DNA of 64,000 nt from Escherichia coli (GTDB lineage: Bacteria > Pseudomonadota > Gammaproteobacteria > Enterobacterales > Enterobacteriaceae), in NCBI RefSeq assembly GCF_003334385.1, contig NZ_QOWN01000011.1. The stretch is one strand, 5' to 3'. The notes beneath the pieces were generated by a model. The model did no database searches. It saw nothing but the letters and a program-made list of their open reading frames with translations, and was not told the DNA's origin. How positions within the stretch are numbered: position 1 is the first letter of the stretch; each line of letters starts with the position of its first letter. Positions 4,064 to 55,565 of the stretch are shown here, piece after piece. Position numbers and translations under genes: made by a program.

Positions 4064-4657
4064 TTGCCCTTCCTGTTCCTGGTCCTGTTAACCTTCCGTG
4101 CCGCCGCAGCGGACACGTTATTGATTCTGGGTGATAGCCTGAGCGCCGGGTATCGAATGTCTGCCAGCGCGGCCTGGCCTGCCTTGTTGAATGATAAGTG
4201 GCAGAGTAAAACGTCGGTAGTTAATGCCAGCATCAGCGGCGACACCTCGCAACAAGGACTGGCGCGCCTTCCGGCTCTGCTGAAACAGCATCAGCCGCGT
4301 TGGGTGCTGGTTGAACTGGGCGGCAATGACGGTTTGCGTGGTTTTCAGCCACAGCAAACCGAGCAAACGCTGCGCCAGATTTTGCAGGATGTCAAAGCCG
4401 CCAACGCTGAACCATTGTTAATGCAAATACGTCTGCCTGCAAACTATGGTCGCCGTTATAATGAAGCCTTTAGCGCCATTTACCCCAAACTCGCCAAAGA
4501 GTTTGATGTTCCGCTGCTGCCCTTTTTTATGGAAGAGGTCTACCTCAAGCCACAATGGATGCAGGATGACGGTATTCATCCCAACCGCGACGCCCAGCCG
4601 TTTATTGCCGACTGGATGGCGAAGCAGTTGCAGCCTTTAGTAAATCATGACTCATAA
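4031..4657 (+). CDS. tesA: Periplasmic acyl-CoA thioesterase I / lysophospholipase L1 (SGNH hydrolase), 208 aa
   Basis: Start taken at MMNFNNVFRWHLPFLFLVLL (signal peptide) within track ORF 4001..4657; GDSLSAGY SGNH motif. Confidence 0.9.
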   Translation: MMNFNNVFRWHLPFLFLVLLTFRAAAADTLLILGDSLSAGYRMSASAAWPALLNDKWQSKTSVVNASISGDTSQQGLARLPALLKQHQPRWVLVELGGNDGLRGFQPQQTEQTLRQILQDVKAANAEPLLMQIRLPANYGRRYNEAFSAIYPKLAKEFDVPLLPFFMEEVYLKPQWMQDDGIHPNRDAQPFIADWMAKQLQPLVNHDS

Positions 4658-39389: not shown

Positions 39390-42542
<3,153 letters not shown>

Positions 42543-42559
42543 TACAACGTGTAATCACT

Positions 42560-42585
42560 AAGGCCGCGTAAGCGGCCTTTTTTAT
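42560..42585 (+). terminator. Rho-independent terminator of acrAB
   Basis: aaggccgc-gtaa-gcggcctt hairpin followed by TTTTTT, 18 bp after the acrB stop. Confidence 0.85.
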
Positions 42586-43087
42586 GCATAACCTACGAAC
42601 ATTAAGGAGTAATTGAACCACCAACTCAGGATCTCATACGAAAACCAGTATTAACCACGGATAAAATTCATAAAAAATACTGATTGTTAGTTAATTTATA
42701 TTAAGTAGCGCTAATAGATTTAATAATCCATAATCATTTAGAGGCTATTCTTAATTATTTGCGGTAATTCTTTATTCATTCCTCGGTTATTACGTCATAT
42801 TCAGAGCAATCCTGGTATTAGTGTCACCAATTTCATCTGGCGATAATCCTGAAATGTTATGAATAGTTCGAGCAAACTGCTTTTACCTGCTGCGGGTTAG
42901 TGCTAGTATGAAAAAGTGAGTCCTGTCCCGCTTCCTTCCTAATTGTAATTTTTCGTAATAATGCGATGAAAACCTGCAAAGAGTGGCTTATAGTTAAGCT
43001 AACAAACGAGAGGGCAAGTCCAGGTCAGTAAGTTTTTTCCATCCCGAAAGGTGTCCGTTAGTTCAACCGCTAAGAAGGGGACGCGTT

Positions 43088-43462
43088 ATGGATGAATACT
43101 CACCCAAAAGACATGATATCGCACAGCTTAAGTTTCTCTGTGAAACCCTGTATCATGACTGCCTTGCAAACCTTGAAGAAAGCAATCATGGCTGGGTAAA
43201 CGACCCAACCTCGGCGATCAACCTCCAGTTGAATGAACTGATTGAGCATATTGCGACCTTCGCACTTAATTACAAAATTAAGTATAATGAAGACAATAAG
43301 CTCATTGAGCAGATCGACGAATATCTGGATGACACCTTTATGTTGTTCAGTAGTTATGGTATTAATATGCAGGATCTTCAGAAATGGCGGAAGTCAGGTA
43401 ATCGACTATTCCGTTGTTTTGTCAATGCGACGAAAGAGAATCCTGCGAGTTTATCTTGTTAG
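43088..43462 (+). CDS. tomB: Hha toxicity modulator TomB (YmoB family), 124 aa
   Basis: Recognised sequence [31 protein letters not shown]; immediately upstream of hha. Confidence 0.92.
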
Positions 43463-43487
43463 AATTATTACAACCATAGGTAGAAGT

Positions 43488-43706
43488 ATGTCCGAAAAAC
43501 CTTTAACGAAAACCGATTATTTAATGCGTTTACGTCGTTGCCAGACAATTGACACGCTGGAGCGTGTTATCGAGAAAAATAAATACGAATTATCAGATAA
43601 TGAACTGGCGGTATTTTACTCAGCCGCAGATCACCGCCTCGCCGAATTGACCATGAATAAACTGTACGACAAGATCCCTTCCTCAGTATGGAAATTTATT
43701 CGCTAA
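43488..43706 (+). CDS. hha: Haemolysin expression modulator Hha (H-NS co-regulator), 72 aa
   Basis: ATG at 43488; [72 protein letters not shown]; embedded in a longer, spurious track ORF 43242..43706. Confidence 0.93.
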
Positions 43707-43877
43707 TAAATAATTCGCTTTCGGAGCTATAACCGGCTGTTTATTAAGAATTTTATACTTTTTCGCCATGAAGACATACCCTATGTGATCTTTATCACAC
43801 AGATGTAATGGGAACGTTCTCTTCACTGACTTTTCGTCTTACTGTGTTGCCGCATTTTCAGCAACCGGAGGTCAGTA

Positions 43878-44429
43878 ATGAGCACAGAAAAAGAAAAGAT
43901 GATTGCTGGTGAGTTGTATCGCTCGGCAGATGAGACGTTATCTCGCGATCGCCTGCGCGCTCGTCAGCTTATTCACCGATACAATCATTCCCTGGCGGAA
44001 GAGCACACATTACGCCAGCAAATTCTCGCTGATCTATTCGGTCAGGTGACAGAGGCTTATATTGAGCCAACGTTTCGCTGTGACTATGGCTATAACATTT
44101 TTCTCGGTAATAATTTTTTCGCCAACTTCGATTGCGTGATGCTTGATGTCTGCCCTATTCGCATCGGTGATAACTGTATGTTGGCACCAGGCGTTCATAT
44201 CTACACGGCAACACATCCCATCGACCCTGTAGCACGTAATAGCGGTGCTGAACTGGGGAAACCCGTCACCATCGGTAATAACGTCTGGATTGGCGGACGC
44301 GCGGTCATTAACCCTGGTGTGACCATTGGTGATAACGTCGTGGTAGCCTCAGGTGCAGTTGTCACAAAAGATGTCCCGGACAACGTTGTCGTGGGCGGTA
44401 ATCCAGCCAGAATAATTAAAAAATTGTAA
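43878..44429 (+). CDS. maa: Maltose O-acetyltransferase (left-handed beta-helix hexapeptide acyltransferase), 183 aa
   Basis: Hexapeptide-repeat region ([14 protein letters not shown]…[31 protein letters not shown]). Confidence 0.93.
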
Positions 44430-51378: not shown

Positions 51379-54925
<3,547 letters not shown>

Positions 54926-54954
54926 GCGTTGTGTCCTGACCTGATTCTGGATAT

Positions 54955-55413
54955 TTATTCGATGGGTAAAGAAGTGGTGTATTTAATCTGTTCCATCGCG
55001 AAGCTGGAAGTGACGTCCGACAGCCCCGGCACGCTGTTTACCAGACGCTTATAAAACTCGTCGTAGCGTTTCATGTCGGCAACCTGGACGCGCATCAGAT
55101 AATCGTATTCACCAGCCATGCGCCAGAACCCCAGCACTTCTGGCATTTCGGTAACCACCGTGACAAAGCGGCAATACCATTCGCTGCTGTGATGTTGCGT
55201 TTTTATCAGCACAAAAGCGGTCAGGCCGAGGCCTATTTTTTCCGGATCCAGCAGGGCGACTTTGCCGATAAGGATACCGTCGTCCTCCAGCCGTTTCAGG
55301 CGCTTCCAGCAAGGGGTGGTTGTCAGATTAACGGCTTCAGCCAGTGCCTGCAAAGAGAGGGTGCAATCCTGCTGCAGTAAGGCCAGCAGCTTACGGTCAA
55401 TTTTATCTAACAT
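54955..55413 (-). CDS. decR: Lrp/AsnC-family transcriptional regulator, 152 aa
   Basis: Start at [17 protein letters not shown] inside the longer track ORF 54955..55641; HTH plus RAM domain. Confidence 0.88.
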
Positions 55414-55565
55414 AGCCCTTCCACAGAGAATTTTTTTCTCTTTTAATTTTATTTTAAAGGTGAAATCACGACAATTTATTCTGTGCGGTTTAAACACCAC
55501 GGCACAAAATGACAAATTCAACGCAAAAAAAACCGGGCAATTGCCCGGTGCTGGAAGGGATCTCG

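Follow-up and report, generated by a model that had tools for sequence, protein, structure and literature searches.

The region between acrB (39393–42542) and tomB (from 43088) covers positions 42543–43087 of the window, i.e., the 64-kb stretch of E. coli DNA analysed here, and these limits correspond to the exact 545-bp gap between the two genes. The window is E. coli K-12-like and reads in the reverse orientation of MG1655; NC_000913.3 coordinates are obtained as 523796 minus the window position. In MG1655, the spacer therefore occupies NC_000913.3 480709–481253, an interval with zero annotated features in the current RefSeq record of this strain. The spacer has a GC content of 0.29–0.40, as compared with 0.52 for the whole window, and the AT enrichment relative to the surroundings extends over 400 bp (GC 0.34 versus 0.52). 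Positions 42661–42760 (GC 0.19) represent the most AT-rich 100 bp in the window, and the spacer also contains the segments that rank second in AT content at lengths of 200 bp and 400 bp. When only ORFs of 90 aa or more are considered, the spacer ranks among the four longest inter-ORF gaps of the window and is the most AT-rich of such gaps exceeding 300 bp. Of 5426 complete E. coli genomes, 5424 contain it. A first description of this DNA, made from its letters only and referred to below as the sequence-only reading, had pointed to a gene-free AT-rich tract that acts as the regulatory region of tomB-hha. The length, the composition and the empty RefSeq annotation agree with the first part of this description, and the analysis presented below bears out the second.

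We scanned one genome per species for the corresponding locus and recovered 80 loci, 71 of which showed acrB-tomB synteny. Across these 71 syntenic Enterobacteriaceae genomes, the spacer measured 435–559 bp with a GC content of 0.35–0.40. As a baseline we used the fourfold degenerate sites of the flanking genes, which have a mean identity to E. coli of 0.57. Mean identity to E. coli reached 0.85 for the acrB terminator, 0.89 for a nearly invariant element at 42941–42962, 0.72 for the core promoter and 0.67 for the leader, whereas values of 0.27–0.38 were obtained for three of the other four segments upstream. As judged from these alignments, length and composition of the spacer are retained, most of its sequence is drifting and constraint is confined to a few islands. 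The islands consist of the terminator, an AT block, a palindrome resembling the RcsAB box, a GTAAT repeat, the core promoter and the leader. The features of the region are listed in Table 1.

Table 1. Features located in the acrB-tomB spacer (window positions).
Feature	Position	Strand	Details
acrB intrinsic terminator	42560–42585	+	AAGGCCGCG-TAAG-CGCGGCCTT followed by T run; terminator scan
Lineage-specific unconserved segment	42586–42662	+	C > G; holds Shine-Dalgarno and TTG ORF of 13 codons (42613–42654)
Conserved AT block	42663–42730		GC about 0.19; TATAAT-like box 42722–42727
RcsAB-box-like palindrome	42801–42814		TCAGAGCAATCCTG in E. coli; 9/14, weak
Conserved motif (G/C)CTAAC-N3-ATGAA	42850–42865		Degenerate in E. 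coli (TGTTATGAAT)
CpxR box GTAAT-TTTTC-GTAAT	42945–42959	+	−56 to −42 from TSS; predicted in E. coli
Sigma-70 promoter	42966–42994	+	−35 ATGAAA 42966–42971; 17-bp spacer; −10 TATAGT 42989–42994
tomB-hha TSS and 87-nt 5′ UTR	43001–43087	+	CCAUCCC 43039–43045; Shine-Dalgarno GGGGA 43077–43081

The terminator scan returned a terminator-like hairpin at 42560–42579 followed by a T run. The acrB transcript end determined by SMRT-Cappable-seq is located at 481212, which corresponds to window position 42584, and an acrAB-tomB read-through operon is absent from the same listing (PMC6131387). The clean acrB terminator proposed by the sequence-only reading is thus confirmed by both the hairpin with its T run and a published 3′ end. 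The segment directly behind it (residual identity 0.05 with other genera) is unalignable outside Escherichia and has already diverged in E. albertii and in the Escherichia-clade loci L002, L003 and L005. At the end of this segment, a weak Rho-termination region has been reported with its peak at 481133 on the minus strand of MG1655 (window position 42663) and a score of 2.08 (PMC7815308). This score is computed over 800-nt windows and, because the downstream window takes in tomB-hha, the signal is ambiguous: it may stem from read-through transcripts of acrB being terminated or from a tomB promoter that is derepressed by bicyclomycin.

At the other end of the spacer, our promoter scan identified a single plus-strand site, ATGAAA-17-TATAGT. 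The tomB-hha promoter predicted in a genomic SELEX study of the RpoD holoenzyme features identical hexamers, and the holoenzyme bound to the spacer in this in vitro assay (PMC3946193). By SMRT-Cappable-seq, tomB belongs to a lone operon (b0461/b0460) whose TSS maps to reverse-strand position 480795, i.e., window position 43001, and no additional TSS was listed at 4808xx–4811xx (PMC6131387). This start is located exactly 7 nt past TATAGT; both this distance and the spacing of the hexamers fall within the values of a sigma-70 promoter (primary 5′ end 5–9 nt after the −10, hexamers 16–18 bp apart). Both the −35 and −10 hexamers are kept in all genera compared. A ChIP-seq peak of sigma-S RNA polymerase for tomB spans 479920–480115 in published coordinates, which would presumably place it over the promoter, at about 42903–43098 of the window, if these are U00096.2 coordinates (offset 778). 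Other candidate promoters, namely TTTACC-16-TAGTAT near 42882–42909, TTAACT-16-TATGAA on the minus strand of the AT block and a GATAAT box at 42842, were neither conserved nor supported by a TSS and were rejected. We also set aside a PdhR gSELEX peak near tomB; its 8/14 box was judged too weak.

With the start at 43001, the tomB leader is 87 nt long. Folding of this leader showed no surplus stability over shuffled sequences (z = 0.02). RNAalifold analysis of 67 distinct leaders yielded a consensus of nine pairs, in which the leader contributes only a short pairing between CCAUCCC and the Shine-Dalgarno, and the sole covarying pair is located inside the tomB coding sequence. The corresponding 6-bp pairing, CAUCCC:GGGAUG, resembles an anti-Shine-Dalgarno helix and can form in 95% of cells, with no compensatory change; all departures break the pairing. 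A second helix, GUGUYC:GGAYGC, was noticed by eye in Escherichia and dropped, as the pairing is disrupted in both Klebsiella and Enterobacter.

The most conserved element of the region lies just upstream of the promoter. It contains tandem GTAAT pentamers within the nearly invariant sequence TAATTGTAATTTTTCGTAATA (42940–42960), and the repeat is nearly invariant, at a constant offset of −56, among 72 aligned Enterobacteriaceae sequences. The copies of this element in Cronobacter, Erwinia, Pantoea, Serratia and Yersinia read TGTAATTTTTCGTAAT, TGTAATTTTTAGTAAG, TGTAATTTTTGGTAAT, TTGTAAGTTTACGTAATA and TTGTAAGATTAAGTAATA, respectively. The CpxR box consensus is GTAAA-N5-GTAAA, which the E. coli repeat matches at eight of ten positions (two mismatches) with exact spacing, a score that 62% of shuffled spacers attain equally well. 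The consensus has also been cited as TTTAC-N4-8-TTTAC (PMC13353760). Because such a match is common by chance, the assignment to CpxR rests on the invariance of the element together with experiments in Yersinia. There, a 2026 study described a CpxR motif that is conserved and precedes ymoB by 162 bp, and a TSS (TSS2) at −106; phosphorylated CpxR bound the ymoBA promoter in an EMSA, which located binding to a 200-bp fragment rather than to a footprint, and constitutively active CpxR led to higher ymoBA promoter activity in a reporter assay (PMC13353760). In the Yersinia sequence, the first pentamer of the element likewise starts 162 bp from the ATG of ymoB, and a TATATT −10 ends 7 nt before −106. 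The distance from motif to TSS is accordingly 56 bp in E. coli and Yersinia alike. In E. coli itself, tomB is a member of the CpxR iModulon and both tomB and hha are included in the RegulonDB list of CpxR targets, whereas tomB is not among the direct CpxR targets identified by ChIP-exo (PMC7657598). We infer that the E. coli GTAAT-N5-GTAAT repeat is bound by CpxR. This CpxR-related part of the region is therefore not new.

The AT block is another of the conserved islands. Its identity to E. coli is 0.55–0.65, as compared with 0.27–0.38 for neighbouring spacer DNA, and SMRT-Cappable-seq reported no TSS within it (PMC6131387). The spacer was flagged for H-NS binding sites by genomic SELEX in vitro (PMC3946193). 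In Yersinia, ymoB is up 81-fold in a ymoA mutant, i.e., in the absence of YmoA/Hha (PMC8369931). The high-affinity H-NS motif TCGATAAATT has a single match in the spacer (8/10), and the motif count is uninformative. Given the extreme AT content, the genomic SELEX flag and the derepression of ymoB, the resemblance of the tract to an H-NS-type target noted by the sequence-only reading holds up. The AT block is probably the main platform for H-NS binding, and we infer that H-NS/Hha silences tomB-hha through this block in E. coli. In Erwiniaceae and Yersiniaceae, the promoter is preceded by merely about 150 bp of non-coding DNA; since this suffices in these families, the long AT-rich part is not indispensable. 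The long AT tract is thus a feature of Enterobacteriaceae that the promoter does not require.

Taken together, we consider it likely that the spacer is an intergenic control region in which the acrB terminator and AT-rich DNA bound by H-NS are followed by a CpxR box, the sigma-70 promoter and the 87-nt leader. The proposed sequence of events would be as follows. The intrinsic terminator, the end of which is mapped, would stop acrAB transcripts at about 42584, with Rho as a possible back-up. It is followed by approximately 350 bp of AT-rich, mostly freely drifting DNA that includes the one conserved AT block. H-NS, for which in vitro binding is documented, would occupy this DNA together with Hha, in which case the operon’s own product would damp the tomB-hha promoter. 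Phosphorylated CpxR positioned at −56 to −42 would activate the adjacent sigma-70 promoter, which features a weak −35; box and promoter are conserved and RNA polymerase binds the spacer in vitro. Transcription starting at the mapped position 43001 would then produce the 87-nt leader with its ordinary Shine-Dalgarno. It is in the Yersinia orthologue that phosphorylated CpxR has been shown to bind the promoter fragment, that promoter activity depends on Cpx and that loss of YmoA/Hha leads to derepression. The tract is an ordinary, mostly already-described control region of tomB-hha, and almost all its parts (TSS, promoter, CpxR target status and H-NS binding) are already present in the literature or in RegulonDB.

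The palindrome in the middle of the spacer raises the question of an additional input. RcsAB boxes act as operators at wza/cps, rcsA, Klebsiella galF and Erwinia amsG, and the consensus reportedly published by Wehland and Bernhard in 2000 is the 14-bp sequence TaAGaatatTCctA. In most other genera, the tomB palindrome reads TAAGAATATTCCTR; a perfect TAAGAATATTCCTA occurs in one genome, that of Kluyvera ascorbata, while the Yokenella copy is ACCAGGAATATTCCTGGT. Several genomes carry perfect palindromes. The palindrome is mostly located 215–237 bp before the TSS (141 bp in three short spacers of the Pseudescherichia type). It is followed in most genera, 64–72 bp downstream, by the conserved motif (G/C)CTAAC-N3-ATGAA, which is positioned 157–169 bp before the TSS. 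We tentatively suggest, as a possibility rather than an expectation, that the palindrome is an operator for RcsAB or RcsB which, along with TAAC-N3-ATGAA, would put tomB-hha under control of the Rcs phosphorelay, and that this input is strong in most Enterobacteriaceae but has been weakened in Escherichia. Consistent with this, 49 of 72 spacers deviate from TAAGAATATTCCTA at no more than two positions (at least 12/14) as compared with 1.1% of shuffles, almost all of these sites share one position relative to the TSS, and the distance that separates them from the second motif varies little in most cases. Furthermore, these copies fit the consensus better than the best matches that our scan returned upstream of rcsA and wza in E. 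coli (TAAGGATTATCCGA and TAAAGAAACTCCTA, respectively), which we take to be the published RcsAB boxes and which show four mismatches each (10/14). Going by the capitalisation of the consensus, the E. coli tomB copy presumably keeps five of the six strongly conserved positions. However, this copy, with five mismatches, is poorer than the candidate boxes of rcsA and wza. The palindrome is also far from the mapped promoter, and other regulators of the NarL/FixJ type could bind such a sequence. The assignment to RcsB is a prediction from sequence, in which the consensus was compared solely with the sites from our own scan upstream of rcsA and wza. A literature search for a link between Rcs and tomB/ybaJ returned no paper. 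It is rather doubtful, if conceivable, that the fixed order of palindrome, approximately 54 bp, TAAC-N3-ATGAA, approximately 95 bp and CpxR box in most Enterobacteriaceae would serve to integrate Rcs, Cpx and H-NS/Hha, with the Rcs part decaying in Escherichia.

A different question is where the AT-rich part came from. The tomB/ymoB gene of Yersinia, Serratia, Erwinia and Pantoea is directly preceded by a conserved ORF of 117 aa (354 bp) that ends inside the CpxR box. The motif AATTGTAA at the end of this ORF is common to both groups, and in E. coli the acrB terminator and the box lie about 360 bp apart, which is close to 354 bp. These correspondences would fit an origin of the AT-rich part as the decayed remnant, now persisting without coding function, of the 117-aa gene found in Yersiniaceae and Erwiniaceae. 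Against this, tblastn searches with five of the 117-aa proteins against the 72 spacers gave scattered matches on both strands with E values of at least 0.2, and nhmmer with a spacer profile found nothing in the Yersiniaceae and Erwiniaceae loci, so that we regard this origin as unlikely. A search of NCBIfam with the 117-aa ORF of Yersinia and Erwinia gave no family, and no Pfam domain is recorded for it. An origin of this kind is compatible with the spacer being a control region.

The sequence-only reading had also seen room for an unannotated small RNA or micro-ORF, and such a gene, on either strand of 42586–43000, is in our estimation very improbable. The spacer contains ten ORFs of 8–40 codons, among which only the TTG ORF at 42613–42654 has a Shine-Dalgarno, a strong AAGGAG; the TATAAT-like box at 42722–42727 and an ATGAA at 42859 are conserved and could be taken as traces of a gene. 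The TTG ORF, however, is located in DNA that is not conserved even inside Escherichia, and the ORFs that begin at the conserved ATG 42859 have no Shine-Dalgarno and vary from 4 to 46 codons among relatives, with unrelated peptides. More generally, our small-ORF screen found no conserved ORF among those compared with relatives, and the others lie in unconserved DNA. The tract also contains no RefSeq feature and no further TSS. Curated 3′ ends from Term-seq under three conditions include none at 480700–481199 on either strand (PMC7815308), and the data sets used revealed no small RNA with its own TSS, 3′ end and conservation at 480709–481199. Folding of 42586–43000 showed no excess over shuffles on either strand (z = 0.11 and 0.06). 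An Rfam scan of 42000–44000 at E values up to 10 gave merely sub-threshold noise over the terminator, and a scan of seven orthologous loci at the gathering threshold produced no match in the spacer. The one match above the gathering threshold in these loci was the SRP RNA elsewhere in the Erwinia locus.

Finally, the proposal of the sequence-only reading that tomB-hha has a long structured leader, i.e., a transcript starting near the acrB terminator with roughly 500 nt of untranslated RNA carrying a regulatory fold, can hardly hold: the spacer length kept across genomes, the weak Rho call at 42663, a box and −10 about 310 nt from the ymoB ATG in Serratia rubidaea and a second Yersinia TSS at −188 (PMC13353760) would speak for it, but the sole mapped tomB-hha TSS at 43001 and the unlisted acrAB-tomB transcript (PMC6131387), the shuffle-like folding (z = 0.11) and missing Rfam match of 42586–43000, most of which drifts faster than fourfold degenerate sites, and a leader that is short, lacks a covarying fold and belongs to no Rfam family mean that this proposal is largely refuted. 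The same reading had contrasted its long leader with a start within about 50 bp of the ATG in a tract free of other transcripts or binding; the mapped start, at 87 nt from the ATG, is not that close, and protein binding in the tract has been reported.

Returning to the control region composed of terminator, H-NS-bound DNA, CpxR box and promoter, Hha tunes the silencing by H-NS of virulence and horizontally acquired genes, and control of tomB-hha is therefore relevant to biofilms, to persistence and to how virulence is regulated. In the case of E. coli, the present analysis only joins the known pieces in one coordinate map and does away with the proposed long leader, small RNA and micro-ORF. 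It also provides modest new leads, namely the RcsAB-like operator, which is well conserved in other genera, and two further conserved islands. These leads are weakest in E. coli itself, and among the elements with a proposed function the Rcs-like box is possibly the sole new item. If the Rcs reading is true, the operon of an H-NS co-repressor would integrate the Rcs and Cpx envelope-stress systems over its autoregulation.

Among the closest known systems is ymoBA of Y. pseudotuberculosis. It is the orthologous operon, with GTAA(T/G)-N5-GTAAT located 56 bp before a TSS that follows a TATA(G/T)T −10 by 7 nt, and the Yersinia data add the binding of phosphorylated CpxR to the promoter fragment, the raised activity and the strong derepression without YmoA/Hha. 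It differs in that a further TSS is present at −188, the leader measures 106 nt and the upstream gene encodes 117 aa and is not acrB; in addition, the long AT-rich spacer is absent and upstream non-coding DNA amounts to only about 150 bp. As in CpxR promoters of the cpxP type, the tomB-hha pentamers are arranged in tandem with a 10-bp period just upstream of a weak −35, but unlike the consensus of this type, both end in T rather than A. With RcsAB operators, tomB-hha would share a 14-bp palindrome that reaches up to 14/14 in related genera and, as in several cps-type promoters, is located far upstream of the start codon, whereas the E. coli copy scores 9/14 and is placed about 200 bp from the sole mapped TSS. 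AT-rich promoter regions silenced by H-NS/Hha include those of hly, proU and bgl. The tomB-hha spacer resembles H-NS/Hha-silenced promoters in its strongly AT-rich flank, in vitro H-NS binding and BCM-sensitive transcription nearby. In contrast to the hly/proU/bgl type, tomB-hha belongs to the core genome and its own product is the co-repressor of H-NS, and the effect would therefore be autoregulation and not xenogeneic silencing.

The upstream side of tomB/ymoB carries a conserved ORF of 117 aa in Yersinia, Serratia, Erwinia and Pantoea, where it adjoins the gene and ends in the C-terminal sequence (S/T/P/A)A(D/N)EL. This ORF had no match in Pfam or NCBIfam, and it is absent from the acrB-tomB spacer of Enterobacteriaceae. 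Its stop codon lies within the candidate CpxR box. The Serratia rubidaea locus (L087 1139-1501) places the ymoB ATG approximately 310 nt downstream of a CpxR-like box and a TTATATT -10 element, an arrangement that may reflect either a long leader or an insertion that separated the promoter from the gene. In addition, several database proteins of approximately 185-205 aa (P0005, P0008, P0010, P0026, P0027 and others) combine a TomB domain (PF10757) with an Hha domain (PF05321); they look like fusions of tomB to hha, or else like products of frameshift calls or of faulty assembly.

Within tomB-hha, SMRT-Cappable-seq mapped the start of a transcript spanning hha-maa, which the data set counts as a novel operon, to a position internal to tomB (window 43372, NC_000913.3 480424) (PMC6131387). 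Term-seq identified two 3′ ends, one 72 nt into the tomB ORF (window 43160, NC_000913.3 480636), which was marked as inside a significant Rho-termination region, and the other at the first codon of hha (window 43489, NC_000913.3 480307) (PMC7815308). These ends suggest termination before the end of the operon, or processing, inside tomB-hha. The tomB gene also contains a strong promoter-like site, TTCGCA-18-TATAAT (window 43259-43288), and the start predicted from it, at approximately 43295, differs from the mapped hha-maa start.

The acrB-tomB spacer (window 42543-43087) is a repeated target of insertion sequences in E. coli strains, as identified in NZ_CP025048.1, NZ_AP027436.1 and NZ_CM132638.1. 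Among the 5424 E. coli genomes with a spacer match, 34 lacked a single place with at least 80% query coverage. Elsewhere in the window, the 400 bp with the highest AT content (525-924, GC 0.27) exceed the tomB spacer in this respect, and three other long stretches that lack an ORF of at least 90 aa may contain RNA genes or small genes because of their GC content.

Positions of the conserved ORF, insertion sequences and ORF-poor stretches
Feature	Locus	Position	Length	GC
117-aa ORF	L085	989-1342
117-aa ORF	L086	990-1343
117-aa ORF	L087	791-1144
117-aa ORF	L082	1004-1357
117-aa ORF	L084	995-1348
IS1B	E. coli spacer	adjoins tomB 5′ end on upstream side, or cuts into it
IS200C	E. coli spacer	~120 bp downstream of acrB stop
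ISKpn26 (IS5-like)	E. coli spacer	~280 bp downstream of acrB stop
No ORF of at least 90 aa	window	4064-4646	583 bp	~0.50-0.54
No ORF of at least 90 aa	window	53275-53737	463 bp	~0.50-0.54
No ORF of at least 90 aa	window	54597-55565	969 bp	~0.50-0.54

Alignment of the leader (43001-43087) with orthologous leaders revealed that in Escherichia U has changed to C in both GGUGUYC and GGAYGC, and that the two changes are linked. In most genera, CAGGA is present near the leader 5′ end and GGA inside the Shine-Dalgarno sequence (AAGGGGAUG); the E. coli leader lacks CAGGA, the first of these two elements. The spacing of CAGGA and the Shine-Dalgarno GGA in most genera resembles that of a CsrA site pair.
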